A stretch of 64,000 nucleotides of DNA. Source: Candidatus Bruticola sp. (GTDB taxonomy: Bacteria; Vulcanimicrobiota; Xenobia; Xenobiales; Xenobiaceae). Within the stretch, counting starts at the first letter, position 1; each line of letters opens with the position of its first letter. Shown piece by piece: positions 21,343 to 64,000 of this stretch. The translations under genes were made by a program, and so were the position numbers. Below the pieces are notes generated by a model. The model made no database searches, was not told the DNA's origin, and worked only from the letters and a program-made list of their open reading frames with translations. The stretch spans positions 52,216-116,215 of the forward strand of contig JBJEGD010000022.1 in assembly GCA_051874735.1 (NCBI GenBank), in the 5' to 3' direction.

Positions 21343-21449
21343 GGCAAAAGCTAGCAGAAGCTGTTCGTCGTAACGGCGTTTTTAGGTCTGCTTCAGCTTT
21401 AGCCTAAATTTACTTATAAAGGTTAATTTACAATTAGGCAAAAAACGAT

Positions 21450-22484: not shown

Positions 22485-22546
22485 TTACCTATATATATCT
22501 TGATCAATTATGCTCATTACGGCGATCTTTAATTGTAGGAAATTTT

Positions 22547-24007
22547 ATGAAGGTACTTTTAATTAACCCACCGCGCGATAACAGCATTTCTTCAGAAGTC
22601 CCCACCACAGTCAACGCCGAAACTAATACTATTCCCCCATTAGGATTGATGTATTTAGAGGCTCATTTACACAAGTACTCTAATAATTCAGAAGTGCGCA
22701 TCGTAGATTGTCTGGCTGATCACCTACACATAGATCAGCTGCGCAGAATTGTAGCTGATTATCAGCCCCAAATTGTAGGTGTCACCGGACACACACACGA
22801 TTTAATTGATATGATGCAAACTTCCCAAATGGCTAAAGAAGAACTAGGAAGTAAAGTCAAAATATTTTGGGGAGGGCCACACGTTTCCGACTTTCCTACT
22901 CAATCTATGAAATACAGCTGTGTAGACGGGTGTATTCCTTTTGAAGGTGAAGAGGCTTTTACAGAGGTTGTAACTGCTCATGCTGCGGCTTGGAATGACC
23001 AATCGGGCTACGACAATAAAACTTTGGCTGATTATCTGCAAAAAATAGAAGGCATATATTTTAAAAATGAACAGCAGCAGGTCGTACAGACGCCGACTCG
23101 TCGTCCCATCAGCGATTTAGATCTTCTCCCCTTTCCCCGACGTGAAATTTTAGACTATCGCAAATACAGTTATGTACTTGGCAGTGAAGCAGTGGCAACT
23201 TCTCTACTAACTAGCCGGGGATGTCCCTACAAATGTTCCTTTTGCAACACTCCAGGACGTACAACTTGGAGATGGCGCAGTGCTGGATCGGTAGTTGATG
23301 AGTTAGAAAAATGCGCGGAATTGGGAGTAAGTGAGGTGTACATCGTCGATGACACTTTCAATGTGCGCCAAGATCGAGTATTGGCCATATGCAATGAAAT
23401 TCAGAAACGCTCTATAAAAGTAAACTGGAATATCAGAGCCAGAGCCAACTGCATTACACCTGAAACAGTTAAAGCTATGCGCCGTGCAGGGTGTACCAGA
23501 GTCCATATCGGAGTAGAATCAGGTACCGATGAAGGGATGAAAGCACTTAATAAAAATTTGACAACTGCTAAAGTCCGCCAAGCTTTTAAAATGCTCACAG
23601 ACGAAGGTTTGGCTACTGTCTGCTACTTTATGATAGGCTGCCCTCACGACAGTTCTCTAGATGAAATAAACAAAACTATCAATTTTGCTATCGATCTAGA
23701 TCCAGACTATGCCCTATTTGGCATTTTAACTCCTTATCCCAACACATTAGTTTACAATCAAGGCATAGAAAAAGGCATACTCGATCCTAATCATTGGGAG
23801 CAATTCCTGGCTAATCCTTATCCAGATTTTAAGCCACAGGTTTGGACAGAATTTTTTAGCGCAGCCGAGCTAAGTACTTTATGTGATCAAGCCTTTAAAC
23901 GCTTCTATCTGCGTCCTAAACAGATGTTCCGCAAGCTTCTAGAGCTGAAGAATTTCCACGACATGGCCCGCAAATTAAAAGCAGGCTGGGAGATTTTGAA
24001 ATTATGA
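22547..24007 (+). CDS. B12-binding-domain radical SAM protein
   Basis: N-terminal Rossmann-like B12-binding-type domain, then CPYKCSFC (Cx3Cx2C). Confidence 0.75.
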   Translation: MKVLLINPPRDNSISSEVPTTVNAETNTIPPLGLMYLEAHLHKYSNNSEVRIVDCLADHLHIDQLRRIVADYQPQIVGVTGHTHDLIDMMQTSQMAKEELGSKVKIFWGGPHVSDFPTQSMKYSCVDGCIPFEGEEAFTEVVTAHAAAWNDQSGYDNKTLADYLQKIEGIYFKNEQQQVVQTPTRRPISDLDLLPFPRREILDYRKYSYVLGSEAVATSLLTSRGCPYKCSFCNTPGRTTWRWRSAGSVVDELEKCAELGVSEVYIVDDTFNVRQDRVLAICNEIQKRSIKVNWNIRARANCITPETVKAMRRAGCTRVHIGVESGTDEGMKALNKNLTTAKVRQAFKMLTDEGLATVCYFMIGCPHDSSLDEINKTINFAIDLDPDYALFGILTPYPNTLVYNQGIEKGILDPNHWEQFLANPYPDFKPQVWTEFFSAAELSTLCDQAFKRFYLRPKQMFRKLLELKNFHDMARKLKAGWEILKL

Positions 24008-25182
24008 GAAACCCTTGGCCAGTCCTTAAAGCTATTTTAGGTGGGGATACCCCTATTTACGTACACTTTGGCTTAACTCACCGATGCAACTTAACTTGCG
24101 CCATGTGCGGTTTATGGCAAAAGGGCGATAAAAATGAAGAGCTAAGTTTAGAGCAGATAAAGGCTGCTGCTAACAATTTTCGCAAACTAGGCACTGTAGC
24201 CATATCTTTAGGAGGCGGAGAGCCTTTTTTGCGACCGGATCTACCCAAAATTGTGGCAGCTTTCATACGCAACGGTATTGAAACGCGAGTTCTTACCAAT
24301 GCCTTGGCCGGTTCAACTGATATGCACGAAGCTGTAGCTGCTGCCGGTCTGCGCCATATTTCCATCTCCCTAGATACTCCTAACCCTGCAATACAGAGTG
24401 AGATTTGCCACAAGCCAGAAATTTGGGAAAAAATTATTGACAGAATTCGCTTTTGGTCTTCATACATCCAGAAACGTTCTGGAACAGGCTTAATCAACTG
24501 TGTAGTTTCAGCGCGAAACATAAACGATATTCCTAAAATGGCAGCTATTGCCCAAGCTTATAACTTTTATCTGTCTCTGGTGCCTTTAGAAAGACACAGC
24601 TATCAAGGTGAAATACTCAGCTGTTCTCCTGATTCAGAAGAAATGCGCTTTGCCAGCCAAGATGAAGAAAAACTAAACAGCCTCTGGGAATATTTATATA
24701 AACTAAAGAAGCAGCCTAATTCTCCTATTTTCAACTCCATGCCTTATATAAAGGCCATGATTCAATTTTTAAAATACGGCTGCCGAAACGACTCTTCAGA
24801 GACCTCTAATTTGCTTAGCCATAATTTTTGGGGAACTGGACTTGACTGTCAGACGGGTAGCTTAAGCTTTTCAGTCAGTCCCAGCGGCCGCTATTCTATG
24901 TGCCACTTTCAAGATGAGGCTCCGGAAGAGCATCCCAAAGTTTATGAAGATAGTTTTATAAACTGGTACAAGCATAAGCGCGATCTGTCCAAAATAAAAA
25001 AGTTGCGCCGCAGCTGCCTGGCTTGTTTTCGTCCCTGCTGGTGGGAGATAGCCTTAACTATGCATAAATATCCAGCCTTTATGAATGCTCTTCAATTGAC
25101 CTTTCGCCGCATTCCTAGTCAGAAACGTCCATCGCCTTCAGAATTAGTAGAAACTATAAAAAAGGTTCCCCCACTATGTTAG
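24004..25182 (+). CDS. Radical SAM / SPASM-domain protein
   Basis: CNLTCAMC Cx3Cx2C, GGGEPFL. C-terminal CLACFRPCWW auxiliary cluster motif. 4-nt overlap with the upstream gene. Confidence 0.75.
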   Translation: MRNPWPVLKAILGGDTPIYVHFGLTHRCNLTCAMCGLWQKGDKNEELSLEQIKAAANNFRKLGTVAISLGGGEPFLRPDLPKIVAAFIRNGIETRVLTNALAGSTDMHEAVAAAGLRHISISLDTPNPAIQSEICHKPEIWEKIIDRIRFWSSYIQKRSGTGLINCVVSARNINDIPKMAAIAQAYNFYLSLVPLERHSYQGEILSCSPDSEEMRFASQDEEKLNSLWEYLYKLKKQPNSPIFNSMPYIKAMIQFLKYGCRNDSSETSNLLSHNFWGTGLDCQTGSLSFSVSPSGRYSMCHFQDEAPEEHPKVYEDSFINWYKHKRDLSKIKKLRRSCLACFRPCWWEIALTMHKYPAFMNALQLTFRRIPSQKRPSPSELVETIKKVPPLC

Positions 25183-26882
25183 ATACATCCGTTCAAAATA
25201 TGCAAAATAACTGCAGAGAACAAATAGATTCCGCTCCTGGAGCTTCACCTGGTTCAGCTGAAGCGGTCTTTAATCCAGCCGTCGGTTCCCCGGAGCAGAA
25301 TCTTCATGCCCCTTGGGCGCCCAAATCCGGCTGGTATGGTGAGGCTAAAGATTTCAGTGTCGTCTTAATAGCTATGTACAGCGTAGAGAATGCCGGTCTA
25401 CGCTACTTATCGGCAGCTCTTCGTCGCGCAGGCTTCAAAGTAAATCTAATTTTTTTGCGGGATTGGGTCAACAACAAATTAGAAATGCCTTCCGCTGAAG
25501 AACTTGAACTCGTATTTGATATTATTGCTGAAAAAAAAGCTAATTTTGTAGGTATAGGTTTTATTTCTAGCCTACTTTCTATGGCAGAAAAACTTACCGT
25601 ACGCTTAAGAGAACGTTTTCCCCATCTGCCTATCTGCTGGGGGGGAATTCATGTTACGGCAGTGCCTGAAGGGGCTCTCGATTACGCCGACTATCTCTGT
25701 CTTGGAGAGGGAGAAGCTCCCTTAATTGATCTGTGTGAAGCGCTGTATAATAACCAGTTTACTGGAAATATTTTCAATATTTGGGCAAAGCTTAACGGAA
25801 AAATTTTCAAAAATGAAATGCGTCCGCTCATAGCTAATTTAGACGAGCTTCCTTATCCAGACGTAGACGACTTTAACAAATTTTATATCGAAGATAAAAC
25901 TATACACAACGAAGAACCTTGGAAAAGAACGGCCGAGTATCGAATATATTGTTCTAGAGGCTGCCCTTACAATTGCTCTTACTGTTATGTATCTATCCTA
26001 CGCGAAAAATTTGCTGCGGACAAACAGAAGTTTTACCGTCTTCGTTCAGTTGAGCATATACTTGGTGAACTGGAATATATAAAAGCTCATTTTCCACGCT
26101 TGGCTAGAGTAAAAATAGATGATGATACTGCTTTTGCGGCCCCAGCTGCATGGGTAGATGAGTTCTGTACAAAATATCCACAACGCATTAATTTGCCCTT
26201 TGAATGCATGCTTATACCGCCCATGCTGAAACGTCCTTTCTTAGAAAAACTTCAAAAAGCCGGATTAGTTCGCTTGCAAACTGGCATTGAAAGCGGCTCG
26301 CCTCAAGAAAGTTTATCTGTGCACAATAGAGTGCCAGGCAATAATAATATTTTAGCTTTTTCTAAATTTAATAGAGAATTACGTATAAATGCAGTTTACG
26401 ACCTGATTATCGACAATCCATGGGCTTCAGAATCGATGAAATTAGAAACTGCTCAATTTTTATTAGAACTGGAGCGCCCTTACGACATTTACTTTTATTC
26501 GCTAAATTATTTCCCAGGTACAGCCATTACCAAACGTCTTTTAGCAGAAGGACGCATTGATGCAACTCAAGTAGAAGGTCTTAACAACAAAGCTTGGAAA
26601 CAGTTCCGGGTTTCTATGGACTGGCCGCGCAGTCCCGAAGATCGCTTTTACTTGTCGATCTATTGTTTAGCCTCTAAAACGTTTATACCCAAAGCCTTTA
26701 TCCGCTTTCTGCTCAAACATCGCCAATATTTTAAACACCACTGGCAGGTTCCCTTTATTTTAGCTTGGGCTGCAAATTTCTTAAAAATGGGAGCAGTTGC
26801 CTGGCGTTATCTGATCAACGGCGAATTGACCTGGTTCAAAATCAGACAATACGGCGATTTACGCAAACTAATCAGCCAATAA
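25176..26882 (+). CDS. B12-binding-domain radical SAM protein
   Basis: CPYNCSYC Cx3Cx2C after an N-terminal B12-binding-like domain. Overlaps the upstream gene by 7 nt. Confidence 0.75.
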   Translation: MLDTSVQNMQNNCREQIDSAPGASPGSAEAVFNPAVGSPEQNLHAPWAPKSGWYGEAKDFSVVLIAMYSVENAGLRYLSAALRRAGFKVNLIFLRDWVNNKLEMPSAEELELVFDIIAEKKANFVGIGFISSLLSMAEKLTVRLRERFPHLPICWGGIHVTAVPEGALDYADYLCLGEGEAPLIDLCEALYNNQFTGNIFNIWAKLNGKIFKNEMRPLIANLDELPYPDVDDFNKFYIEDKTIHNEEPWKRTAEYRIYCSRGCPYNCSYCYVSILREKFAADKQKFYRLRSVEHILGELEYIKAHFPRLARVKIDDDTAFAAPAAWVDEFCTKYPQRINLPFECMLIPPMLKRPFLEKLQKAGLVRLQTGIESGSPQESLSVHNRVPGNNNILAFSKFNRELRINAVYDLIIDNPWASESMKLETAQFLLELERPYDIYFYSLNYFPGTAITKRLLAEGRIDATQVEGLNNKAWKQFRVSMDWPRSPEDRFYLSIYCLASKTFIPKAFIRFLLKHRQYFKHHWQVPFILAWAANFLKMGAVAWRYLINGELTWFKIRQYGDLRKLISQ

Positions 26883-35471: not shown

Positions 35472-36461
35472 CTACTTCTGAGCAGCGCAATTAATATAGC
35501 CCATTACATTGGCGCTGTTTAAACTATAACTTCTTCTGGCCACTGAATCGGAAGAGTTGCCTTCAATAGTATAAACCTTACCGTTGGCAACTTTTTCTAC
35601 GATGCCAATATGATCGGAAGTACCATCACCCTGCCAATCGAAGAGAATAGCATCGCCGGGTTGAGGAGTGTAAGAACCACGTCCAGCCCAAATATTTTCC
35701 TTCTTGGCCCAATTGACAATAGTAGGGCAATAGTTTACGTTAGAGCAGGAAGAAGTATCGAGCACGCCATGATCTTTGAGCATATTCATGGCCCAAGCAG
35801 CACACCACGGAGTGGTCTGACAATTAATACCACTCTTCTTAGTAATAGCATTGATTGAAGAAGCATTGGACTTTTCAGTCATACCGACCATAGCTCCAGC
35901 ATCGGATAACAATCCGCTGACACCTGTGTTAGCACCATAGTTACCGTTATTGCCTACACTGCTGGTACCCAGGCCGGAGGATCCTACAACACTGGCGGCC
36001 ACAGAGCTAAGATCCATACCCTGAAGCATATCCCCATACTGAGATATCATAGACTTGCACAGTACATCAATAGTAGAATCGCTCATGCCGGGGAAGTAAG
36101 TTTTGAGATACTGAGTAAGCATCTTGGTGGCTTCTTTAGTTGTCTCATTATCTACCTTAGGGTTAGTGTCCATACTTCCAACAATTGCCTGCAGGAAATC
36201 TTCAAAACTTCCACCAGAGTAAAATGATTTCAGGCAGGCAGCCATCGTTTTGCCTTCACTGCCAGCAGCTTCAAGCCCCTTAATCTGAGAATCGATCAAA
36301 TCTTGGGACAATCCCATCATGCCTTGATTGCCACCAAACACAGAAGTGGCGGATACACCGGTATTAGCCATACTAGAATACATTGCTTGAGAATTGGCAA
36401 GATCTTGACCAATCATGTTGTTCATGCCAGACATGGTAGATGTGTTCAATAGCGCGTTCAT
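35472..36461 (-). CDS. CHAP-domain amidase/peptidase with low-complexity N-terminal region, no signal peptide
   Basis: C-terminal CHAP signature: CAAWAMNML (catalytic Cys), PQPGDAILFDW, DHIGIV (His), IEGN. Start moved to internal M31 (MNALLNTS), which has an AGAGAGG RBS upstream. N-terminal ~200 aa G/S/M/N-rich. Confidence 0.7.
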   Translation of the reverse strand: MNALLNTSTMSGMNNMIGQDLANSQAMYSSMANTGVSATSVFGGNQGMMGLSQDLIDSQIKGLEAAGSEGKTMAACLKSFYSGGSFEDFLQAIVGSMDTNPKVDNETTKEATKMLTQYLKTYFPGMSDSTIDVLCKSMISQYGDMLQGMDLSSVAASVVGSSGLGTSSVGNNGNYGANTGVSGLLSDAGAMVGMTEKSNASSINAITKKSGINCQTTPWCAAWAMNMLKDHGVLDTSSCSNVNYCPTIVNWAKKENIWAGRGSYTPQPGDAILFDWQGDGTSDHIGIVEKVANGKVYTIEGNSSDSVARRSYSLNSANVMGYINCAAQK

Positions 36462-36631
36462 AAGAAAGACCTCTCTTTTAAAACTAGACTTGTCTATATT
36501 TTCAATACATTCTACATTAAAGTAAAGGCCTATTGGCAGACAACTAGACAAAAAATAAAAAATGCCTCTTACCCTGACCGTTACTAAAGTGTAATGCTCA
36601 AAGAAAAGGCACTGTAAAAGAAGCTAATGCA

Positions 36632-37828
36632 CTAACTCATACTGCTCACTTGACGAGTTTGCTCTACTCCTTCAACCATATTCTCTAATGCGGCATCCAA
36701 CTCTTCATCGGTAACTTCTCCGCCATTTTGCATATGTTCGCATACATAATAGGCATTTTCAAGTTTAGTCAAACCTTCTTCAATCGCTTCACGTGATAGA
36801 ATTAAAGCTTCCCCCATAGGAGCAGAAGTATTAAAGGCACTCTCTGGTAGAGAAGTATATTTGGACTTCAAATCTTCAACAAAAGCAGCATATTCGCTCA
36901 ACCCCTCAGAAAAAGCCCCCCAGCAATCGTTGCCATCTCTTAGGCCGCTTATGCAGTCCAATATAGTTTGCACACAGCTAGGCAAGTTGGTGCAACCACA
37001 GCATTCACTGTCATTTTCTTCCATAACAAGACGGTCTGGTAAGCGCAAACCGCAATTAGGACAACGCTTATCCCATTCTCCCAATTTAACTCCGCACTTA
37101 GGACAACTCCAGTTCAAAGAGCATTCCTTAGCCTGCTTTTTAGCTTTAATTTCTTTATATTTGGTAATCATTACCTCGCTGGCCGTTTTAAACGAATCTA
37201 AAGCTGCCGAAAGTTCCTCTTGCTTTCGCTGTTCACAAACTTTGAATAACCAATCCAAAGCTTCACAATAATCCTCTATGTGATCCGGAAGCGAATTACA
37301 AGCTACTAAACGCTCAAAAGCCGAACGAAGCGAGTCTAGGCAAGTTTCTAACATATCCCAATCGCGTCGGCCCTCAAGTACCGCTATCCCAGCTTTCAAC
37401 ACACTATCAATGCCCATAAACTCAGACATTTTAGTTTTAGCTTTCTTCAACTCTTCTAATTTGGCCAAGCTCTTTTCAGTTTCATGCAACTGACTTACTA
37501 ACGCATTGACGTCACGTACAGCCCCTTCGGCATCTTCACCTTTTAAATCGCAAATGAGAGATGACAAAACGCCGGCCACACCTTCAAAGTCGGTATACAC
37601 CTGAGCGATATGAGGCAATTCCTCTTCATTATAATCGTAACCGCGCACACTGTACTTAAAGGCCAATATAAAAGCAGACATCACCACATCACATTGATGC
37701 AGTTCATCACGTAACTGCATCAATGGTTCTTTATTAGCGATACAATGTTCTAAACCGCTTACAAAAGCGCGCAAATGGGGGATTAATTTAGGAAAAGAAT
37801 CATCCAGCTTAGGCAATGTATCCAGCAT
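36632..37828 (-). CDS. Hypothetical protein, paralogue A, with internal zinc-ribbon
   Basis: CPKCGVKLGEWDKRCPNCG ribbon. Clear paralogy with 37880-39094: LPKLDDSFPKLIP vs FPLLDDNFPRIIP, DSVLKAGIAVLE vs DSLLRAGNFVLE. Confidence 0.5.
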   Translation of the reverse strand: MLDTLPKLDDSFPKLIPHLRAFVSGLEHCIANKEPLMQLRDELHQCDVVMSAFILAFKYSVRGYDYNEEELPHIAQVYTDFEGVAGVLSSLICDLKGEDAEGAVRDVNALVSQLHETEKSLAKLEELKKAKTKMSEFMGIDSVLKAGIAVLEGRRDWDMLETCLDSLRSAFERLVACNSLPDHIEDYCEALDWLFKVCEQRKQEELSAALDSFKTASEVMITKYKEIKAKKQAKECSLNWSCPKCGVKLGEWDKRCPNCGLRLPDRLVMEENDSECCGCTNLPSCVQTILDCISGLRDGNDCWGAFSEGLSEYAAFVEDLKSKYTSLPESAFNTSAPMGEALILSREAIEEGLTKLENAYYVCEHMQNGGEVTDEELDAALENMVEGVEQTRQVSSMS

Positions 37829-37879
37829 GGGACCTCCGAAAAATTGTCTTGTCGTACAGATAAAAAACAGAAAAGATAA

Positions 37880-39094
37880 TTATTTTTTAGAATTGCGATA
37901 TTTTTGAGCTAAACCACCTATACTGCGCATCTCATTTACAGCTTCAGCCATAACTTCTAGAGCACACTGCATATGAAACCGATCTACAGGAGGTTCAAAT
38001 TCTTCTAAAAGCTCTACTGCCTTAGAGAAGTTATCTATGCAAGTATTAGCAAGGTCTATAATACCATCAATATTTTCACGTTCTTCTGGAGTTGTTTTCA
38101 ACTTAGAAGAAGACATTTTATTAAGGCGTGAAGAAGCGTCAGCGACACGGCGTCGCAGCTCACCTACAGCCCTCTTGAAGGGACGTATCATTTTAGGATT
38201 GTTGGGAAGTTCTTTGGCTACATCGAAAATACGCTGTACATACTCAGGCATTCCGCTAATTGCCTCGCTCTTATCAGCATCTTTGCCTAGTGAGCTACCT
38301 CGCTCAAACTCTTCGGGCATTCTGGCTCCACAAGCGAAACATTTCTTGCTTCCTCCCAGCATAGGCTTACCGCAATAAGGGCACAGCCCTACAGATGAAG
38401 TTTCGACATCAATCTGACTGTCCTGGAAATTGACAAGTTCTTCTCCACTCGACTTAACTTCTTCCAGGACCTCAGGTAATGCTTCCAAATTTCTTTCGTT
38501 GAGTACTTCAACTAAGCGCTCTAAAGCGTGATCGTGACGGATCAACTCTTCAGGCAGTCCACTGCCAGAAACTATCTCATTCCATTGGGGAATAAGCGCC
38601 TCTAAACGGGCACTCAGAGCATCCCACTCAGCCCCGTTAGTTTCTAACACAAAATTGCCAGCGCGCAGCAAACTATCTACGACTGGCACCTCAGAATAAA
38701 TATGGCTATCACCTACAGCGGCTTTCAAGTCCATATTTAATTCTTCCAAATCTTTTAAATGTTCGTATATGCTGGCCACACAATTAACCGCCGCTGCTGT
38801 AGCATCCATACTCAAAGCGGTTTCTAATTTTGCCATTTCCGAACTCATACGCGTAAAAAGAAGCACTATTTCGTTGATCGCTTCATTCCTCTCGGGAGGA
38901 AGTTCTTTCAAACGTAACACTTCCATAAAGTTGCCCAAAGCTGTCCCGAGAGCTATATCGCACTGGCGAAATTCAAAGGCTGTACAGCCCAAACTTACTC
39001 CACCAGCTACACATTCAGACATAATTTTTACCAACTGTCTGAAAGAAGGAATTATACGAGGAAAATTGTCATCTAGAAGAGGGAATTTAGCCAT
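37880..39094 (-). CDS. Hypothetical protein, paralogue B, with internal zinc-ribbon
   Basis: CPYCGKPMLGGSKKCFACG. Tandem paralogue of 36632-37828. Confidence 0.5.
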   Translation of the reverse strand: MAKFPLLDDNFPRIIPSFRQLVKIMSECVAGGVSLGCTAFEFRQCDIALGTALGNFMEVLRLKELPPERNEAINEIVLLFTRMSSEMAKLETALSMDATAAAVNCVASIYEHLKDLEELNMDLKAAVGDSHIYSEVPVVDSLLRAGNFVLETNGAEWDALSARLEALIPQWNEIVSGSGLPEELIRHDHALERLVEVLNERNLEALPEVLEEVKSSGEELVNFQDSQIDVETSSVGLCPYCGKPMLGGSKKCFACGARMPEEFERGSSLGKDADKSEAISGMPEYVQRIFDVAKELPNNPKMIRPFKRAVGELRRRVADASSRLNKMSSSKLKTTPEERENIDGIIDLANTCIDNFSKAVELLEEFEPPVDRFHMQCALEVMAEAVNEMRSIGGLAQKYRNSKK

Positions 39095-39247
39095 TGTAGG
39101 TGTGAAGTTCTAGCGCTCTGCAGCCCTTCCTGTATTTTTTACCGGCAATAAAACATAAAATTTAACTTGATACCCCAGGCAAAGCGCAGATAAAAGCGGC
39201 ACCCCAAGCGTTTATCTGCGCTTCTATAGTGTAAAAAATGTTATAAA

Positions 39248-40234
39248 CTATTTTGCAGTAACAACAGAGGGCAAGTCATTTTTATCTGAAGAGAATTTGG
39301 AACTAACAGTGCGGACAGGAATTTGTCCTAAAACAGCAGCAGTCCCCAAACTAGAAAGTGAACTACAGCCTCTGCGGGGAACAATCATACTGAGACCGCG
39401 TTTTTGCCCTTCCTGAGCTACACAATTCATACTTTTTTCCGCAATAGCCTCCATTTCTTTAATTTGGCGATACAAATATTCCAACTTTTGCCAAGACTTC
39501 GCTATTTTTTGCAACTGCTGAGAAGCAGAAGTAGCTAATTTTAAGCCAGAATTAAGCAAACTTTGGGCTCCTAAGCTTAGTTTTTTACCCTCTTGTTGCA
39601 TAGCCATCCCTTGCTGCTTTAAAGCTTTGCCTTTACTTATCATAGCTAAGCCTGCAGCTTTAGAAAAAGGGCAAGCAGCCAAAGCTCGTCCCGCCGCCTC
39701 TAAAGCTGCTCCAGAAGCATAAAGAGCAACTCCGGAAGTTATTTGAGCTAAAGCACACTGTCTCATCTGGGTAGCACTCTGTTTTAGTTTAAGGCTCAGA
39801 GCATTTAATTGTGAGGCAGCACTTTGGCTTTGAGTTAAAGCGGTCGACTGCAGAAGATACTTTTGTTCCTCAGTCTGAGCTTGACGAGAGATTTGCAAAT
39901 TGCGCCTATACTCGGACTGCAGCTGCTCATTAGAGAGAGATTCCGCTTCATTAGCTTCTAAGCCACTGAGCCTCAGCCAGGAAACTGCACCATTATAGGA
40001 GTTAGTTTCCAACTGTCCCGAATTTATCGAAGACGCGTCCACACCACTATTAGTAGATTCTGCCGTTAAAATTTTCACTCTACTATCAGAAGCGGAATAA
40101 AGGTCGCCGCTATGGCCCAGTAAAGACTGCGTTTTTAGATAGTCGGCATTAGAATAAGGTGCTGAAAAGGCGGCTAAATTACTACGGCAACAAGTGAAAC
40201 TACCATCGCATGAACCTAATATAGTATTGTTCAC
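39248..40234 (-). CDS. Hypothetical A/Q/L/S-rich coiled-coil protein
   Basis: Long low-complexity helical/coiled-coil region. First gene of the minus-strand operon, after a long AT-rich promoter region at 40235-40472. Confidence 0.45.
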   Translation of the reverse strand: MNNTILGSCDGSFTCCRSNLAAFSAPYSNADYLKTQSLLGHSGDLYSASDSRVKILTAESTNSGVDASSINSGQLETNSYNGAVSWLRLSGLEANEAESLSNEQLQSEYRRNLQISRQAQTEEQKYLLQSTALTQSQSAASQLNALSLKLKQSATQMRQCALAQITSGVALYASGAALEAAGRALAACPFSKAAGLAMISKGKALKQQGMAMQQEGKKLSLGAQSLLNSGLKLATSASQQLQKIAKSWQKLEYLYRQIKEMEAIAEKSMNCVAQEGQKRGLSMIVPRRGCSSLSSLGTAAVLGQIPVRTVSSKFSSDKNDLPSVVTAK

Positions 40235-44201: not shown

Positions 44202-45083
44202 TTATTTTTTTTCAATATGTGCCGCCGACGCATCCTTTTTTTCTATATTAGTAATATTTGAAGTAGTCTTTTTATCGGCCTGCTCAGCTCCAGTATTTTC
44301 AGCCCCACCGATAAAGAGGCCTTTATCAGAGTCGTACTTTATGGATCCTAAACCATGCCGACGCGGTTCAGGACATTCGATGGTATATCCACCACGTCTG
44401 AAAGTATAAATATAAGGTTTAGACGATGCAGGACAGCGCAGTTCGCGAAACATGTACTGAGGACGCAAAGACTCAAGTTTAGCTGGAAAAGCTTTATTAT
44501 GATCTTTAGCATAAATTTCACAAGCTGTAGCCAATTCATTGATGCTTCTAGTACAATCTGAAAGAAGACGCTCTATGCGCTTGCCTTCAGCAGCTAGCAT
44601 CAACCAGCCCCAATCTATAGTCTCTAAAGCAGGCCAATCAGCTCCGTACTTGTCAGGCTCTGGTACAGATAAGGTATAATGATGGCGATCTTTACTGACT
44701 TGATAAACAAAGGGTTTACCGGAAACAGGATCGTCACCGATGATGACCTTGGGAGCGTCAGTTGGCAGACCTGTATTAAAACTGCGCTCCAAAGCCTTCA
44801 AACTGACCGGATAGAGACCACTTTCCATAAAGTAATACTCGATAAGCACTTGCAAACGAGCGTAAGCTCGTAAACCTTTAGCTTTAGGACTAAGCTTAAC
44901 TGATAGATCTGAAGCCGTCTTAGAACTATCTTGCTTAACTGAAGAAGCTAAACTAGCCGCCTGAGAGGTAGAGGACGATGGAGCTTTAACGTTATTGCCA
45001 TTAGCTTTATTTTCGGATGCTATACCCCAACTAAAGCACAAAATGCACCCCAACAGGCTTAAAAACGCTATCTTAAGCCCCAT
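44202..45083 (-). CDS. Hypothetical secreted protein (signal peptide, possible lipoprotein)
   Basis: Internal start MGLKIAFLSLLGCILCFSWGIASE gives a signal peptide (LLGC possible lipobox). No recognisable domain. Confidence 0.4.
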   Translation of the reverse strand: MGLKIAFLSLLGCILCFSWGIASENKANGNNVKAPSSSTSQAASLASSVKQDSSKTASDLSVKLSPKAKGLRAYARLQVLIEYYFMESGLYPVSLKALERSFNTGLPTDAPKVIIGDDPVSGKPFVYQVSKDRHHYTLSVPEPDKYGADWPALETIDWGWLMLAAEGKRIERLLSDCTRSINELATACEIYAKDHNKAFPAKLESLRPQYMFRELRCPASSKPYIYTFRRGGYTIECPEPRRHGLGSIKYDSDKGLFIGGAENTGAEQADKKTTSNITNIEKKDASAAHIEKK

Positions 45084-45176
45084 GCCTAAGTTATGTAGAC
45101 AAATTGTTATAAATTTATACATACACACTACTGTCCTATACCTCTGATAAGTCAAAGCAGACCATTGTGTCCAAGC

Positions 45177-57171: not shown

Positions 57172-57558
57172 ATGAGTAATGATGATCGTTTCGCCTCTAG
57201 GGGCAAAACTCAGGAGCAACTAGCTGGAAAGAGCAGCGATCTTAAAATTAAAGGCGTAGAAGAGCACGAGAGAAAACTGCTAGAGCAGATGCGCAATAAA
57301 AGAAAGCAACAGGAAGCGCATAAAGCCAGTCTGGAGCAAGGCGGCCCCAGTCCTGAGACAGCGGCCAACGTTCACTATATGAAGTGCCCTGAATGTGGTT
57401 TTGATCTTAAACCGAGCAATATCGAAGAATTAGGCATGTCCCTGCCCAAATGTGCTAATTGTGGCGGTGTATTCGTAAGCAAAGAAAAAATCGCTTCTAT
57501 GAAAGAAAGATCTGGCGTTTTAGGACGTCTGAGTAAAATATTTGGCAGCAGCAAATAA
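57172..57558 (+). CDS. Small zinc-ribbon protein with N-terminal coiled coil
   Basis: CPECGFDLKP...CANCGGVFV C4 ribbon. Charged helical N-terminus. Confidence 0.4.
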   Translation: MSNDDRFASRGKTQEQLAGKSSDLKIKGVEEHERKLLEQMRNKRKQQEAHKASLEQGGPSPETAANVHYMKCPECGFDLKPSNIEELGMSLPKCANCGGVFVSKEKIASMKERSGVLGRLSKIFGSSK

Positions 57559-57653: not shown

Positions 57654-58724
57654 TTATATCCAAACTTGACGAAATATCTCCTGTAAGTCTGGCTCACTTG
57701 CAGCAGCCAAAAACTTTAGTTCTGCTTCCGCTTCAGCTAGGCAAAATTTACGAGACAAATATCTTTGACGTTCCAAGCAGCGACGACTTGCATAATCAAT
57801 TTTTAGACCGTTCAGAGGTAAAGCCAACCGACTGCAAGCCCAATGCACTAATCTAGCCTGAGCAGCCAAATGAAAGCAACTAAATTTTACCTCCTGACTA
57901 CGCAAACGTTCATAAAATCGACTAAATTTAATCGGATCTAGTCTAGGACCGAACCCGTCTCCTTCTCCAACAGAAATATACTGCCCCTGTATACCTCTCT
58001 CAAGCTTGCTTTTCAACATAGTGTAATGAAACTTCAACGCCGCGCTCTCGATGTCTGCCCCACCTTTAACAAGTAAATAATGGCGTTCCAAAAATTCCAA
58101 ATAATTCCACAGCTTCAATGCAGATCGGTAACAAGAAAACTTAGACAAACAAAAATTGTAAGCAGCCTTCAATGTCATGAGGCGTTCATCTTCTAGTTCT
58201 TTAAGATATGAGTGACGCCATATTGTCTTTACAATGTCCAGTCCAGCTTTTAGATATTGGACGACACTGGATATTTTTGACTGACATAATTGCTCCAACC
58301 GACTAACCACGTAATTAGGAGTATTAAGCTTGACACCGTGAAATCCGAGTAACAGATTTGAGGCCATATCTCTGAGTTGTCCAACTTTAAAGGGTTTAAA
58401 AATTAGGCCGTCTAGTTGGGCTTCTTTAAATTGCTCCAGATAGCCTTCGAAGACGGCTGTCAGCAAGATCTGCTTCTGGTTGGGATATTTTGCTTTACAG
58501 CAGCGCATAATATGAAGAAGCTCGCCAACTTGAGCATTGCCATTTACAACTAACAAATCTGCGCGACAGTCCAATAAATAAGAGGCTAGCTGTGAGGAAC
58601 GCCCTTTAAGACGAATTATTTTTCCGGCCAAGTTTTGCAAAGTGCAAAAAAGCAAATCTCCTATAGCAGAATCTTGATCGCAAAGAACAATGACAGATGT
58701 ATTAGACACGCACTTTTCCCCCAC
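57654..58724 (-). CDS. Pseudo-receiver (CheY-like) domain protein with unassigned C-terminal domain
   Basis: Receiver-like fold: acidic pair CDQDS, conserved Thr (LLTAV), Lys (IFKPF). The phospho-acceptor position reads LLVVNGN, with Asn where Asp is expected. Confidence 0.45.
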   Translation of the reverse strand: MGEKCVSNTSVIVLCDQDSAIGDLLFCTLQNLAGKIIRLKGRSSQLASYLLDCRADLLVVNGNAQVGELLHIMRCCKAKYPNQKQILLTAVFEGYLEQFKEAQLDGLIFKPFKVGQLRDMASNLLLGFHGVKLNTPNYVVSRLEQLCQSKISSVVQYLKAGLDIVKTIWRHSYLKELEDERLMTLKAAYNFCLSKFSCYRSALKLWNYLEFLERHYLLVKGGADIESAALKFHYTMLKSKLERGIQGQYISVGEGDGFGPRLDPIKFSRFYERLRSQEVKFSCFHLAAQARLVHWACSRLALPLNGLKIDYASRRCLERQRYLSRKFCLAEAEAELKFLAAASEPDLQEIFRQVWI

Positions 58725-58738
58725 ATTTTAAATCGTAG

Positions 58739-59797
58739 TTAAACTAATTGATAAATAAATTCATAAAGCGGTGCAAACATAGCAAAAAGCACTGCGGCGG
58801 TAATTCCTCCCATCAAGGCCAACAGTATAGGTTCAATTAAGACTGACAATTTATCAATATCGAATTTAATCTGATCATTATAAAAATGGCTGAGCCGATC
58901 TAAAACATTATCAAGACAGCTAGACTCAGTTCCTACATTCAAAGCGCTTATAAAAGATGAAGAGAAGTAACCTCCTGACTGCAACGCTCGGCGTAATTCT
59001 GCCCCCTCCTCAATTTCTAAAGCAGCCAGTTCTAAAGCCGCTGCCAACGGATAATTATCTAAAGACAAGCCCACAAGCTGCAAAGAACTATTCAAAGGTA
59101 AACCGCTGCGTACCAGCATAGCCATAGTATGACAAAAACGAGCTGTGACAATATTTTTAACTATTTTACCTAATAGTGGAATATGCAAAACCAAAATTTG
59201 TCCTTGACGTTTGGCTAATGCTGACCAGCGGCACAATTTAAAAAGAGCGGATATTCCCAAAAAACATACTCCAAAAAATATCCAAAACAGCGAGTTTTGC
59301 AACATATTCAACCCAAATAGTAATACAGACGTAGGCCAAGGCAAACTAGTTATAGACGAAAAGATGGGAGAAAATGAAGGCATAATGTAAACTGACATTA
59401 CAATACTGAGCGCCACAAAAATGCAGCAGACAGTACAAGGATACTGAAGAGCTCCTTTGAGCCGACGCTTCATATATAGTTCGAATGAAAAAAACTCAGA
59501 AATATATAAACAAATTTCGGCTACAGAGCAAGAAGCCTCTCCAGCTCTGATAAGTCCAGTCTCTATCATTTCAAAATAACTGGGATGAGAACTCCAAATT
59601 TGAGTTAAACTTTCTCCACGGCTAACCGCTTCAGCAGCCTCATACCAAACCTGCTTATCCTTGTAATATTTACAACAGTCGGCTGCTGATTCAAAAGCTT
59701 TTACAATTGGCACCCCAGAGCCCAACATAACTCCTAATTGACGGTATAGAAAGATTTTTTCCATAATTATTACCTCCAGCTTATTTTGCTGAAACAA
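58739..59797 (-). CDS. Type II secretion / type IV pilus platform protein (GspF/PilC family)
   Basis: Two T2SSF-type repeats: LYRQLGVMLGSGVPIVKAFE, MLVRSGLPLNSSL, EPILLALMGGITAAVLFAMFAPL. Confidence 0.7.
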   Translation of the reverse strand: MFQQNKLEVIIMEKIFLYRQLGVMLGSGVPIVKAFESAADCCKYYKDKQVWYEAAEAVSRGESLTQIWSSHPSYFEMIETGLIRAGEASCSVAEICLYISEFFSFELYMKRRLKGALQYPCTVCCIFVALSIVMSVYIMPSFSPIFSSITSLPWPTSVLLFGLNMLQNSLFWIFFGVCFLGISALFKLCRWSALAKRQGQILVLHIPLLGKIVKNIVTARFCHTMAMLVRSGLPLNSSLQLVGLSLDNYPLAAALELAALEIEEGAELRRALQSGGYFSSSFISALNVGTESSCLDNVLDRLSHFYNDQIKFDIDKLSVLIEPILLALMGGITAAVLFAMFAPLYEFIYQLV

Positions 59798-61035
59798 GAT
59801 GGAGAAATAGAACCATCAGCTGAAGGCCTAGCCAACCACTGGCCTCCATACAAAGTGTTAATATAAATAATGCTGCTACCTGGATCTACCCACAAAGCTC
59901 TGGGACCAGATCGGCACAATTCTTCAGGCATCGCCGCTTTTATCCATTGGCCCGCACCACTACATTCTTGAAAGATCAATCCATACATAAACTTGTTGTC
60001 AATAGTATATACGGCCGATCCCCAACTATTCACAGCCACACTGTGAAGTCGTCCTGCGCCAGAAAATGGCACTTTAAAACAGCTGCCCCAGGCCGCATAA
60101 TTGTTAATTTTTTCCTCAATTTTTTGCGGCAGACTGCCCCAATAAAATTGACGAAGACGTCGAAGACTGCCCTCGCAAATCCACACAGAAGTGCCATATT
60201 GATCACAAGTGATAGAACGTAAATCCTGAATAGGATTTGATCGGCTAGTTAAGCACATACCATTGTTCCATGAAGACTGAGCTTGATTCTGAGAATCATC
60301 TAAAACCCAAATAGATTGATTAGCTCTATCGGCACAAAATACAAAACACCCCATTTGGTCAGAAGCTATATCTACAATATTAGCTTCATACTCGTAAGTA
60401 AGTTTAGGTATAGCGATATTTTTAGTGCCGATATGCTTGCCCTCGCTATCAAATATCAGCCGGCATAACTTAGGAAGGCGCAGATAAGCTAACCAAACGA
60501 TACCTTGGGCAGGATAACCACACACAGCCCCTATATCGTCCTTGGGAAGGTTACCGAAAAGTTCCTGTTCACACGATGAAGGCAGCCACAAATTATACTT
60601 GCCAAAAGGAGTGCTAAAATTTCGATCTGTAAAGGCTACTTCACTAGCGTAAGTGTGAGCAGAAATTGAAGCCAAACGGTCCTTGCCCAACAGGCGGCGC
60701 AAAGTACACAAGGGAGCACCTTTGTGACCAGTATAAAGAGTTAACAAAGCAAAATCTTGGCTAAACTCAGAAACCTCGACGCTCCAGCTGTAATCTTGAT
60801 AAGGTGCGGAAAATTTGCCTTGCATTCTGGCAGACAGAGAGGCCCAAGGACGATTTTGCAGTTCTTCCATTTTCGCTTGGCCCAAATTTATAGCTGTAGT
60901 AAAACGATCAGTACCTAAATTAGCTCTACTGCCGAATGCATAAGTGCTGAATAGACAACTTGCAGCGGCAAAAATTAAAAATAATCCCATCAGCAGCTCT
61001 ATAAGCGTATAAGCGAACTGACGTTGTCTTTTCAT
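59770..61035 (-). CDS. Oversized prepilin-type N-terminal cleavage/methylation domain protein (pseudopilin-like, 421 aa)
   Basis: N-terminus FAYTLIELLMGLFLIF is a class III signal / N-methylation motif. Large W/G/Y-rich C-terminal beta-rich domain. Confidence 0.6.
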   Translation of the reverse strand: MKRQRQFAYTLIELLMGLFLIFAAASCLFSTYAFGSRANLGTDRFTTAINLGQAKMEELQNRPWASLSARMQGKFSAPYQDYSWSVEVSEFSQDFALLTLYTGHKGAPLCTLRRLLGKDRLASISAHTYASEVAFTDRNFSTPFGKYNLWLPSSCEQELFGNLPKDDIGAVCGYPAQGIVWLAYLRLPKLCRLIFDSEGKHIGTKNIAIPKLTYEYEANIVDIASDQMGCFVFCADRANQSIWVLDDSQNQAQSSWNNGMCLTSRSNPIQDLRSITCDQYGTSVWICEGSLRRLRQFYWGSLPQKIEEKINNYAAWGSCFKVPFSGAGRLHSVAVNSWGSAVYTIDNKFMYGLIFQECSGAGQWIKAAMPEELCRSGPRALWVDPGSSIIYINTLYGGQWLARPSADGSISPSCFSKISWR

Positions 61036-61709
61036 AGAAATGTGTCCCCCCTTATTTCTAACTGTGTGTAAATACTTTTATCAAGTTTAGGCCGCTTAAT
61101 TGAAAACTTTCCCCCCTGGCGCAGCCCTCGCTCAAGTTCGTTAAAAGAAACGGTTAAACTTAATTCCAAAAATTGTGCTCCGCCGCGCATGCGACAATTT
61201 ACTGAATTAATGGAAATGGCAGACAAATCGCGGGCTAAAATTCTTTGAGATAGCATCTGATCGGCATCATCTAAATTGTTAGCCTGAGGAATAAAATTGG
61301 AGCGGTAAACACATTTAGTAAGTTCCCGACTAACGGAGTCCCAATGATAGCCGATTATTGATGAGGTTCCTCCTGCTGGAGGAGATTGACGAAAGATAAA
61401 CTTGAAAACGGTCTGTTCATCACCTTTGACCGAGTAGCCGTCACGCCACTTTTCCGCACTAACTTTAGGCCAAAGAATACTTTGACATGATCGCAAATCA
61501 CGACTAATATTGTCGATACTTAAAGCGGCGGATCGCATAGCCCTCATGCCTTTTTCACTGTGCTTGCAGCTATTAGCTGCTGCAGAAGCTAACCGCCCTA
61601 CTAAACTTAAAAAAGTAACAATCAAAGCGCAGCAAATCAGCAATTCAATAATAGTGACTCCGCGTTGATTATTTTTAGTTTTCTTCCACGCATTTATCGT
61701 AAAAAGCAT
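61032..61709 (-). CDS. Pseudopilin (GspH/I/J-like) with prepilin-type N-terminus
   Basis: QRGVTIIELLICCALIVTFLSL. 4-nt overlap with the downstream gene. Confidence 0.6.
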   Translation of the reverse strand: MLFTINAWKKTKNNQRGVTIIELLICCALIVTFLSLVGRLASAAANSCKHSEKGMRAMRSAALSIDNISRDLRSCQSILWPKVSAEKWRDGYSVKGDEQTVFKFIFRQSPPAGGTSSIIGYHWDSVSRELTKCVYRSNFIPQANNLDDADQMLSQRILARDLSAISINSVNCRMRGGAQFLELSLTVSFNELERGLRQGGKFSIKRPKLDKSIYTQLEIRGDTFL

Positions 61710-62175
61710 TTCCCCACCCCTTTGAGAAACTACCAGTCAGATAGATCTTTTTATCTAAGCAGGAAGGCAGACCGCTGCTACTCAGCGTATCGTAAGCGAC
61801 TCCCCGCACACAAATTAAAGTTGGCTTAAGTAAGGATATTTCAAAATAATAATTATTAGAATAATCTGGTACGTTGACCCTGGCTAAAAGCAACTGGCCA
61901 TTTTCTCCAGATTGAACTGCTTTCAGAGTATTGCCTGGCGCCTTTATTAAGGTATTCTCAGAACCGGTGCTGCAATAATTCAGAAAATAGTCGCGTCCCG
62001 ATTCAGCTAAATACCAGGCTTGCAAACTGCGCTCCTGAACCGCCGAGAAATGACGTTCTGTTTGCAAAGAAAGCAAATAGGCGGCCGCCAAAATCATAAT
62101 AATGACCATAACAAACATCGACATAATAATGGCACTGCCGCGACACTTTTTGGGAGTGAAAGTAAGACCTTTCAT
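61675..62175 (-). CDS. Possible minor pseudopilin (GspK-like N-terminus)
   Basis: Internal start MKGLTF...RGSAIIMSMFVMVIIMILAAAY resembles the GspK-type hydrophobic N-terminus. The first 37 codons of the track ORF are probably not translated. Start coordinate approximate. Confidence 0.35.
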   Translation of the reverse strand: MKGLTFTPKKCRGSAIIMSMFVMVIIMILAAAYLLSLQTERHFSAVQERSLQAWYLAESGRDYFLNYCSTGSENTLIKAPGNTLKAVQSGENGQLLLARVNVPDYSNNYYFEISLLKPTLICVRGVAYDTLSSSGLPSCLDKKIYLTGSFSKGWGNAFYDKCVEEN

Positions 62176-62313
62176 TTCAGGTTCTGTTAATTTACAGCTG
62201 ATTATCTGGCAGAATAAGAGTGATGAAAAATTCTTCCAACACGCTTCTAAATGATTGTTCAATTCTTGGCCCCCCAATAATCGCATTTGCGTATACTAAC
62301 CAACAGTTAACTT

Positions 62314-62694
62314 TTAATGAATAAACTCGCCTTCCCAAACGGCTTTTAACGCTTTCACTCGTTTGGTACAAAGCTTTTCAACTACAGCAAAAGACTCTTG
62401 GGCCTGCAGTAAATAGGCTGTGCCTCCACTGCGTTCTAACCAATTCTCTATACAAAAGACAACTAATTGCCAATATTCTATTTCTTTTTCACTCACTTTC
62501 CGCAAAATGCGATCTACCCGCCCTTTAGATACACGACCGGAAGCACGCTGCCTCATTTCTTCGAATTCACGTTTAACACAAGCACATCGTTCATCTATAC
62601 CCCTGCGTATAGAGTGCCAGCTCTTAGAGAATTCATGCGGCGACATTGTACGAGTTCGAGCCTTTTCCAAAAAAATAGGCAAAAAATTCAGCAT
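62314..62694 (-). CDS. Hypothetical basic protein, first gene of pilus/T2SS-like operon
   Basis: ORF only. No motif recognised. Position suggests co-transcription with the pseudopilin genes. Confidence 0.3.
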   Translation of the reverse strand: MLNFLPIFLEKARTRTMSPHEFSKSWHSIRRGIDERCACVKREFEEMRQRASGRVSKGRVDRILRKVSEKEIEYWQLVVFCIENWLERSGGTAYLLQAQESFAVVEKLCTKRVKALKAVWEGEFIH

Positions 62695-62821
62695 AATTTT
62701 CCCCCCTAAAAAACAATTTGCTGTACAAATTGTTTATACAGCATGATGCTGAAATAAATTGGAAATTAAATTGATAACTGTTAGCAGGAAAAAATTACAG
62801 CCCCCATCTAATTATTAAACT

Positions 62822-64000
62822 GTGATCAAGACAGCACGAATCCTGGTGCTTGAAGATGACGCCTCCCTGAGAGGTATTCTCAGCCGCGCTCTTCAAGACG
62901 AGGGGTTTGAAGTGACGGCTGCGTCAAGGGGGGAATACGCTGTCGTGATCTCCTCGCGCAAATTATTCGATCTAATAGTGTTAGATACTTGTACTGTAAG
63001 TTTTGAAGCTTTGCTGCCAATCTTGACAGTACATAGTCATCTCCGAGAGGCGGCTGTTCTGGCCTTAACCAGATGCGCCAGTGAGGAAGATTCGATCAGA
63101 TCCCTCCGTTCAGGCACGACAGATTGCTTGCGTCAACCCTTCGAATTAGAAACTTTTTTAAATGTAGCTTTATGCCTAATTAGGCAAAATATTCGCTACC
63201 GACAGAATTGCGAATATAACCTGCGCTTGCAGGCTTTGCACTCGTGGTCTATACATACTCTGCTTAGCAGCTTTTCCAAGGGCAAATTCTCGAGCCAAGT
63301 TATAAAGACGGCTCAGCATATTAGTTCTGTGGCTAAAAACTTAGCTCTGCAGGCCGGGCTTGAGGCCCCCACAGTCCAAGAAATTGAGATTCACGCCGTT
63401 TTGCACCTTCTTAAGCAAGGACTTAAGCCTGATTACGCGCCATCGAATACGGAGCTTTGGGAAGATAGCTTTACACAAAATTACTCTCATCCCAAATTTG
63501 CCTTAGCTCGCCAGATCATAAGCTCATCTATTTCAGCTGCAGAAGCAGCACCTAACTCTCAGGAGCAGGAAATTCCTAAACTTGAGTTATTTTTACTGGG
63601 TCAATGCAGCATCTGCTTAAATGGCCAGTTAATAGATGATAGAGTTTGGGTAACCCAAAAAATTAAGTATCTCTTTCTGCGCCTAATAAGTAGCAACACA
63701 GATTTAACCTCTGATCAGCTTATCGAAGAATTTTGGCCAGATAGCAGCGGTCAAACTAACTTATGGAAAGCGCTCTCTGTCATAAAAAAAATTTTTCGCC
63801 AAATTTGTCCTAATTTTATACCAATAATGCGCAACTCAGCCTCTATAACATTTAACTCTAAACTTCATATAGAAGCAGACTGGCGCTTATTAGAATATCA
63901 TTGGTCAGAATACCGATCACAAAAGCTACTTCAGCATCTTATTTCTATTAAGAAACTAAGCCGTGGCCACTTTTTGCCTCAATGTTCTATGGAATGGGCG
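62822..64000 (+). CDS. Response regulator (REC + linker + OmpR/SARP-type winged-helix trans_reg_C), 3' end beyond window
   Basis: Not in the ORF track, which lists closed ORFs only. Reading frame open from GTG 62822 to the window end. ILVLEDDASLRGILSRAL...FDLIVLDTC is a receiver with DD pair and phospho-Asp. KIKYLFLRLISSNTDLTSDQLIEEFWPD...KALSVIKKIF is a trans_reg_C-like domain. Confidence 0.65.
   Translation, partial: MIKTARILVLEDDASLRGILSRALQDEGFEVTAASRGEYAVVISSRKLFDLIVLDTCTVSFEALLPILTVHSHLREAAVLALTRCASEEDSIRSLRSGTTDCLRQPFELETFLNVALCLIRQNIRYRQNCEYNLRLQALHSWSIHTLLSSFSKGKFSSQVIKTAQHISSVAKNLALQAGLEAPTVQEIEIHAVLHLLKQGLKPDYAPSNTELWEDSFTQNYSHPKFALARQIISSSISAAEAAPNSQEQEIPKLELFLLGQCSICLNGQLIDDRVWVTQKIKYLFLRLISSNTDLTSDQLIEEFWPDSSGQTNLWKALSVIKKIFRQICPNFIPIMRNSASITFNSKLHIEADWRLLEYHWSEYRSQKLLQHLISIKKLSRGHFLPQCSMEWA

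Follow-up and report, generated by a model that had tools for sequence, protein, structure and literature searches.

What would a bacterium build with an operon for one inner-membrane platform protein and three pilin-type proteins, when no assembly ATPase is encoded beside it? This question is raised by positions 57654–62694 of a 64-kb stretch of DNA (hereafter, the window) from Candidatus Bruticola, an uncultured gut bacterium of the class Xenobia in the phylum Vulcanimicrobiota, formerly Eremiobacterota. Six co-directional, tightly packed open reading frames (ORFs) lie here on the minus strand, and the ORF listing places all six where a preliminary description, made from the sequence, had put them. 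That description had also called the locus a type IV filament or type II secretion system (T2SS)-like operon, and this holds in so far as a T2SSF platform protein and three prepilin-type proteins are encoded. The encoded proteins are 100% identical to hypothetical proteins of a metagenome-assembled genome of Candidatus Bruticola sp. The remainder of the window is ordinary chromosome, with a dcw cell-wall cluster, rpoD, dnaG, mutL, radical-SAM genes, and similar genes. We think that the six genes probably form one operon for the lineage-specific parts of a Xenobia type IV filament machine (pilus or pseudopilus), which would have partners encoded in trans, a cytoplasmic adaptor, and a divergent regulator. 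The features on which this proposal is based are as follows, with protein lengths in amino acids (aa) and an arrow in the motifs for the prepilin cleavage site.

62314..62694, minus strand: gene 1, 126-aa soluble helical protein (ORF; its orthologue heads the cassette in all lineages)
61675..62175, minus strand: gene 2, PilX_N-type minor pilin, precursor of about 166 aa (N-terminal matches to PilX_N, GspK, and ComGG; orthologue alignment)
61032..61709, minus strand: gene 3, 225-aa prepilin (class III signal QRG↓VTIIELLI; N_methyl match below cut-off)
59770..61035, minus strand: gene 4, 421-aa pilin, predicted to be bimodular (motif, 11-sequence alignment, structure model, Foldseek, profile)
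58739..59764, minus strand: gene 5, 341-aa inner-membrane platform protein of the PilC/GspF family (PF00482, 8e-46)
57654..58724, minus strand: gene 6, 356-aa cytoplasmic protein, pseudo-receiver plus all-helical domain (profile, structure model, Foldseek, CheY alignment)
62695..62821: divergent control region of 127 bp (intergenic alignment of four lineages; inverted repeats)
62822..64000, plus strand, ending about 300 bases past the window: divergent response regulator with REC and BTAD (Response_reg 3e-9; BTAD 6e-12)

The pilin-type proteins, the platform, and their conservation

The second gene is a 203-aa ORF (62286–61675) whose likely start is the ATG at 62175, giving a protein of 166 aa that begins MKGLTF. 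It matches PilX_N (E 0.05), GspK (8e-4), and ComGG (7e-3), and all three matches are confined to residues 46–100 of the 203-aa ORF. The orthologue alignment shows that conservation starts at the hydrophobic helix, RG↓SAIIM, with no Glu at position +5. A prepilin N-terminus that lacks Glu5 is a hallmark common to GspK, PilX, and ComGG. The preliminary description had named this protein a GspK-like minor pseudopilin, which is correct for the N-terminal 50 residues or so, but not beyond them. Against the GspK model NF037980, the protein scores 19 bits, with a cut-off of 130, and only profile positions 2–53 align; it does not show a full-length GspK match including the inserted alpha-domain, as expected of a protein of about 300 aa. 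Since the mature protein has only about 150 aa, the term "GspK-like" overstates the match.

The 225-aa protein falls just short of the N_methyl cut-off (E 3.7e-4; 20.4 bits, cut-off 21.2). The canonical class III signal of its family, G↓V[TS][IL][IV]E, is kept in every lineage, with QRG↓VTIIE in the window, and the family profile gives a weak geopilin match over the N-terminal helix. The 421-aa protein also has a sub-threshold N_methyl match, and its signal, A↓YTLIE, is kept in all orthologues. In the alignment of 11 sequences, the signal of this family is [AG]↓Y[TS][LI][LI]E, and the residue at −1 is only Ala or Gly, mostly Ala, with Gly in lineage L013; these are residues that the cleavage site would be expected to tolerate. 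A six-frame motif scan found two class III signal motifs in the whole window, both within the operon, in the 225-aa and 421-aa proteins. Profile searches of the PDB with the 126-aa, PilX_N-type, and 225-aa families gave nothing significant.

The AlphaFold2 model of the 421-aa protein, made from 11 sequences and of moderate confidence (predicted local distance difference test score, pLDDT, 67), has a 58-residue N-terminal helix (residues 3–60), a four-stranded sheet (70–117), and then about 23 strands. The model divides into a pilin module, residues 3–117, and a beta-propeller of about six blades, residues 130–421. The top Foldseek matches of the model are six- and seven-bladed propellers (YncE, 6-phosphogluconolactonase-like, NHL, and WD40) with E values of 1e-8 to 1e-6, and the family profile matches Pizza6, a designer six-blade propeller, at 6.8e-5. 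The large beta-rich domain noticed in the preliminary description is therefore predicted to be this propeller. Four Cys residues in the propeller are invariant in the 11 sequences, which would fit an exported domain. The 421-aa protein thus appears to have the architecture of a modular pilin, an N-terminal pilin module with an extra folded module. We suggest that the three pilins would make up the complex that primes or tips a filament, that the subunit without Glu5 would cap this complex, and that the propeller of the 421-aa pilin would be exposed at the tip to bind a ligand, as an adhesin module. A tip-adhesin role for the 421-aa protein may reasonably be inferred.

The fifth gene is a 352-aa ORF (59797–58739), for which public gene calls start at the ATG at 59764 and give 341 aa. 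The product contains two T2SSF domains (PF00482, 8e-46), in agreement with its first assignment as a GspF/PilC platform protein. It aligns to positions 64–396 of 401 in the GspF profile and does not have the first 60 or so residues of the canonical members of about 405 aa. Its scores are far under every NCBIfam equivalog cut-off; the best is GspF with 171 bits, and PilC and HofC are nearly equal. The orthologues (341–353 aa) are a closed group found in Xenobia/UBP9 genomes only, and the next-best matches are canonical PilC, MshG, and GspF proteins of about 405 aa with at most 28% identity. The platform protein is, as judged from these comparisons, a divergent and N-terminally short member of the family, which its scores do not assign to a subtype. 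In the filament machine that we propose, its partners, encoded at other places in the genome, would be an extension ATPase, a prepilin peptidase, and probably also a major pilin.

The order of the six genes is identical in at least seven lineages (L003, L004-6, L007-9, L010/L012, L013/L014, L015, and L023/L024), which come from human (Hadza) gut and other metagenomes. Pairwise identities among lineages go down to about 25–40%, and all six ORFs are intact. Comparison of the window with L003 gives a ratio of nonsynonymous to synonymous substitution rates (dN/dS) of 0.04–0.125 for all six genes, with 0.096 for MutL and 0.044 for the deacetylase; these values are approximate, since dS is near saturation (1.1–2.1), but pN is far below pS. 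The cassette is kept as a unit under purifying selection. Where the cassette occurs in L023 (5148–11053) and L024 (5142–11053), its neighbourhood is unrelated, with AnmK/HIT upstream, M23 peptidase/ClpP downstream, and no adjacent regulator or kinase. It therefore behaves as a transferable unit, which suggests that the cassette can relocate as a whole. A scan of metagenomes for more distant cassettes with other neighbours returned close relatives only, on contigs that were short.

Convergent on the end of the operon is a plus-strand gene (57172–57558), whose 128-aa product has a zinc ribbon at its C-terminus (Zn_ribbon_TFIIB, 4.8e-5). An orthologue is at the same place in L003, L004, and L007, and not in L010, L013, and L023.

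The cytoplasmic proteins and the divergent regulator

What is the function of the sixth gene? Public gene calls make its product 351 aa, five codons shorter than the 356-aa ORF. The protein alone gave no match in the initial family searches. The profile of its family (seven to nine orthologues) finds PDB receiver domains over residues 1–134 (E 5e-9). The AlphaFold2 model, from 7 sequences and of moderate confidence (pLDDT 73), shows a clean (beta-alpha)5 domain at residues 10–126. In Foldseek, this domain superposes on CheY and Spo0F with a target template modelling (TM) score of about 0.8, and its matches include the receiver-like domain at the N-terminus of CpaE pilus-assembly proteins. The LLVVNGN motif is present, and in a MAFFT alignment with Escherichia coli CheY and Bacillus subtilis Spo0F, Asn61 takes the position of Asp57. 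The residues corresponding to CheY positions 12, 13, 57, 87, and 109 are Asp-Gln-Asn-Thr-Lys, so that the metal-binding pair is incomplete, while Thr87 and Lys109 are kept. The alignment shows the full acidic triad (Asp12/Asp13/Asp57) in no orthologue. Because of Asn61 at the phospho-acceptor site and the incomplete acidic pocket, the 356-aa protein is a pseudo-receiver. Profile, model, Foldseek, and alignment thus agree with the CheY-like domain with Asn at the phospho-Asp position that had been proposed; the preliminary description had named a genuine Asp at this site as the outcome that would speak against it, and the alignment gives Asn61 instead.

The C-terminal domain (residues 137–355, about 220 residues) is all-helical in the model, including one helix of about 57 residues. 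Nothing similar was found in PDB sequences, in NCBIfam with the C-terminal profile, or in Pfam with full-length members. An exhaustive HMMER search of 1.84 billion representatives with the 356-aa protein gave eight hits, six orthologues and two ordinary tandem-REC proteins, and a word-indexed search returned only the protein itself and one relative. A C-terminal LEFLERxYLLxxGG...AL motif was likened by eye to the cyclic di-GMP-binding motif of MshEN/T2SSE_N, and this was dropped, as it has no profile support. The product of the first gene (ORF 62694–62314), listed at the outset as a 126-aa unknown, has no homologue in Pfam, NCBIfam, or PDB sequences; its dN/dS against L003 is 0.04. The cassette adds two protein families that have no homologues beyond the class; one is the 126-aa protein, and the other is the helical part of the pseudo-receiver protein. 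We suggest that the pseudo-receiver/helical protein, and perhaps the 126-aa protein too, would act as an adaptor or gate at the cytoplasmic face of the platform.

The divergent gene starts at GTG 62822 and runs off the window. In full, as found on an identical Logan contig (L015), it encodes 492 aa, in the order REC, linker, putative SARP-type DNA-binding region, and BTAD. Response_reg matches within the window (3e-9), and BTAD (PF03704) matches the full-length copy (6e-12). The preliminary description had proposed a REC protein with a SARP/OmpR-like trans_reg_C domain. The divergent start at 62822 and the REC are confirmed, and a BTAD is present. The winged helix expected ahead of the BTAD can be seen as a sequence pattern; it has no Trans_reg_C match, and the family profile matches the N-terminal domain of EmbR in register with a weak E value of only 0.35. 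The REC of the Bruticola regulator has Gln at the position of CheY Lys109. In our proposal, transcription of the operon would be driven from the 127-bp intergenic region by this regulator. The motifs TTCCTGC, ATTTCC, and ATTTC in this region are invariant in an alignment of four lineages, and just upstream of the first gene of the operon (62711–62743), there are two overlapping near-perfect palindromes, AAACAATTTG/CAAATTGTTT and TGCTGTACAAA/TTTATACAGCA. These palindromes and motifs are candidate operator sites for the regulator. A scan of the 127-bp region for a sigma-70 consensus found no site.

The gene beside the regulator and the residue at position 57 of the 356-aa protein vary together among the lineages, which are listed here with the REC of the regulator:

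L010/L012 and L013: GAF-HisKA-HATPase_c kinase beside the regulator (L010 1286–3709; L013 1160–3862); canonical REC; Asp at position 57
L007: GAF-only remnant beside the regulator (4109–5935); degenerate REC; Glu at position 57
L004: no kinase beside the regulator; canonical REC with Lys109; Asn at position 57
Window and L003 (Bruticola): no kinase beside the regulator; REC with Gln at Lys109; Asn at position 57
L023/L024: no kinase and no regulator adjacent; REC not applicable; Asn at position 57

Wherever the context is known, the orthologues that have no adjacent kinase have Asn57. From this pattern, we infer that a branched two-component system was ancestral, with a kinase that served both proteins, and that the kinase was later lost and a pseudo-receiver became fixed. 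In the ancestral lineages, the adjacent GAF histidine kinase would have signalled to the 356-aa protein, then still a true receiver, while in Bruticola, the kinase would be gone and the phospho-site fixed as Asn. The graded series from Asp with a kinase, through Glu with a kinase remnant, to Asn where no kinase is adjacent amounts to a natural experiment, on a small scale, in the conversion of a receiver to a pseudo-receiver. A more specific proposal, which we offer tentatively and consider doubtful, is a kinase-to-platform switch: the ancestral GAF kinase would phosphorylate both the SARP-type regulator, for transcription, and the REC/helical protein, to gate filament assembly directly at the PilC-like platform, and kinase loss with the change of Asp to Asn would lock the switch in the Asn57 lineages. 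If true, a post-translational two-component input would be wired directly into a type IV filament platform via a previously unseen helical domain.

Missing components and competing explanations

Six-frame motif scans of the 64-kb window found no Walker A or Asp box of T2SSE, no A24 peptidase motif (GxGDxK), and no secretin motif. Inspection of the ORFs of at least 120–150 aa in the window likewise found no ATPase, prepilin peptidase, secretin, or GspC/L/M, and the two approaches agree with the earlier statement that the window is without a GspE/PilB ATPase, a secretin, a prepilin peptidase, and a major pilin. Extension of the contig past both ends of the window revealed no pilus genes. Elsewhere in the window, a minus-strand gene (44202–45155) encodes a 317-aa protein with a signal-like N-terminus and two internal repeats (...YP.SL..L...KP[FY].Y...) that recall by eye the globular domain of a GspG-type pseudopilin; Pfam finds nothing in this protein, and the resemblance is unconfirmed.

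Several points weigh against the proposal of a filament machine with partners in trans. The searches of about 78 kb (the window and about 7 kb at either end) and of the 10-kb flanks of the cassette in seven lineages turned up neither an ATPase, a prepilin peptidase, or a secretin nor an obvious major pilin or a further class III signal. The pilin Pfam scores are under the gathering threshold, and it is atypical for such a signal to have Ala at −1, as that of the 421-aa protein does. The confidence of both structure models is only moderate, and the dN/dS values are approximate, as given above. The correlation of the kinase with Asp57 comes from few lineages. Reliance on trans-encoded partners is itself an assumption. 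Pilus genes are commonly found dispersed. The phylum has one cultured member, a piliated diderm with pilMDTC genes (PMC9758169). For these two reasons, we regard the assumption as plausible.

Could the operon instead encode a T2SS-like pseudopilus, in which the pilins and platform would make a short periplasmic piston and the propeller pilin would serve to recognise cargo and not an external ligand? Among the NCBIfam models, GspF indeed scores best for the platform, the subunit without Glu5 matches GspK, and the phylum is diderm (PMC9758169). However, no secretin, GspC, GspL, GspM, or GspE is found in the 78 kb or in the flanks in the relatives; for a GspD secretin with GspC/L/M partners, ORF inspection and motif scanning covered the locus only, that is, the window and flanks. 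Furthermore, the equivalog scores are all far under cut-off, those for PilC and HofC come close to that for GspF, and the GspK match spans only 50 residues. A T2SS-like piston is thus unlikely. A competence (Com-type) pilus module for DNA uptake is less probable still. The platform has the length of ComGB and aligns over essentially its whole profile (3–331 of 332), and the second gene matches ComGG, but the ComGB score of 108 bits is below those of GspF and PilC and below its own cut-off of 240, and there is no ComGA, ComEA, or ComEC nearby. We know of no Com pilin that carries a propeller. Com pili are characteristic of monoderms. The phylum, in contrast, is diderm (PMC9758169).

The absence of an ATPase near the cassette in any lineage, including L023/L024, where the six-gene unit lies in a new neighbourhood without one, might also indicate a self-sufficient, ATPase-less or otherwise non-canonical apparatus, with the two unknown cytoplasmic proteins in place of the missing components. 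However, a Walker A motif is absent from all six proteins, and scattered pilus genes are common. To our knowledge, every characterised type IV filament requires a hexameric ATPase and a prepilin peptidase, and we find such an apparatus highly improbable. Finally, the incomplete gene set, the degenerate receiver site, the loss of the kinase, and the change of Lys109 to Gln in the regulator might be taken for the decay of a pilus or T2SS locus without current function, but this explanation is effectively refuted by dN/dS values equal to those of the housekeeping neighbours and by conserved synteny, with six intact ORFs in at least seven lineages at identities down to about 25%, and the same data exclude the decayed duplicates that the preliminary description had named as its own refutation.

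A few other observations concern other parts of the window and its edge. On the minus strand at 35472–40234, two paralogous helical proteins of about 400 aa, each with a central zinc ribbon (36632–37828 and 37880–39094), are flanked by a CHAP-domain protein (35472–36551) and a 328-aa Ser/Ala/Gln-rich protein without a family match (39248–40234). On the plus strand, a gene at 19261–21342 resembles by eye a DegT-like aminotransferase with a Pro/Ser/Ala-rich repetitive tail of about 250 residues, and it is followed, up to 26882, by four consecutive genes that look by eye like radical-SAM or B12-binding radical-SAM genes; the whole group (19261–26882) may be a sugar or lipid modification cluster. 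In the dcw cluster (1386–7326, minus strand), long low-complexity extensions are found on several proteins, among them an acidic C-terminal tail of about 120 aa on the FtsQ-like protein, an extra Ser-rich N-terminus of about 130 aa on MurG, and a C-terminal tail of about 70 aa on FtsW. Beside this cluster, just beyond window position 1 (L025, 14039–17777), are a 427-aa histidine kinase and then an 816-aa protein in which a Ser/Thr protein kinase is joined to a periplasmic-binding-protein domain, a pair unrelated to the pilus cassette.

Comparison with known systems

The regulator resembles the SARP family, whose members EmbR, AfsR, and DnrI have a winged helix and a BTAD. Like them, it has a BTAD after a region of SARP pattern, and it is divergent from its putative target operon, with short repeats in the promoter region. 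Unlike EmbR, AfsR, and DnrI, it has an N-terminal receiver and, in some lineages, a TPR-containing insert, and in Bruticola, its receiver is without Lys109 and there is no adjacent kinase. Pseudo-receivers in pilus systems are known from the N-terminal domain of CpaE/TadZ (PDB 4n0p and 4dn6) and from Myxococcus FrzS. The 356-aa protein is similar to these in its CheY fold without a functional phospho-acceptor pocket, in having a second domain, and in being encoded with pilus-type genes, and as in FrzS, its second part is helical. It differs from CpaE/TadZ in that there is no ParA/MinD ATPase domain, and from FrzS in that the helical domain has no detectable similarity to it, or to anything else. 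Some orthologues still have Asp57. The platform protein shares the two T2SSF domains of GspF, PilC, and ComGB (PF00482) and aligns at full length to all three profiles, but unlike GspF and PilC, it lacks the N-terminal 60 or so residues. It has at most 28% identity to proteins outside Xenobia, and its gene has no ATPase gene beside it.

In the type IVa pilus tip complex of Pseudomonas and Neisseria, the minor pilins FimU-PilV-PilW-PilX are combined with PilY1, a non-pilin adhesin with a C-terminal beta-propeller. The cassette likewise has a set of minor pilins that includes a PilX-type subunit without Glu5, together with a predicted beta-propeller, for which display at the tip would be expected. 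In the cassette, however, there is no separate PilY1: the propeller is part of a pilin, and its sequence does not match the PilY1 propeller family. The pilins number three rather than four or five, and their operon also contains the platform gene. Pilins of modular build, with adhesive modules grafted on, are widespread and diverse (PMC8179133); in Streptococcus sanguinis, PilB, with a vWA module, and PilC, with a lectin module, are bimodular type IV pilins (Raynaud et al. 2021, PMC8179133). The 421-aa protein is like these in having a small pilin module with a class III signal and a bulky, apparently functional module, in being encoded among pilus genes, and in its expected role of tip display and ligand binding. 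It differs from PilB and PilC of S. sanguinis in that the graft is a predicted NHL/YncE-like beta-propeller of about six blades without a Pfam signature, the −1 residue is mostly Ala, and the host is a diderm of an uncultured class.

The cassette is probably a lineage-specific type IV filament module. Four features set it apart: a modular pilin that bears a predicted propeller, a platform protein of reduced length, a pair of new cytoplasmic partners that includes the pseudo-receiver, and a REC-SARP-type regulator. Xenobia are uncultured and largely gut-associated bacteria; the cassette is a conserved and selected candidate for their interface with surfaces or hosts, in which the propeller-tipped filament subunit is a likely adhesin. 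The current understanding of type IV filaments is not challenged by the cassette, and each of its ingredients has a precedent, in modular pilins, PilY1 propellers, the pseudo-receivers of CpaE/TadZ and FrzS, and scattered pilus genes.

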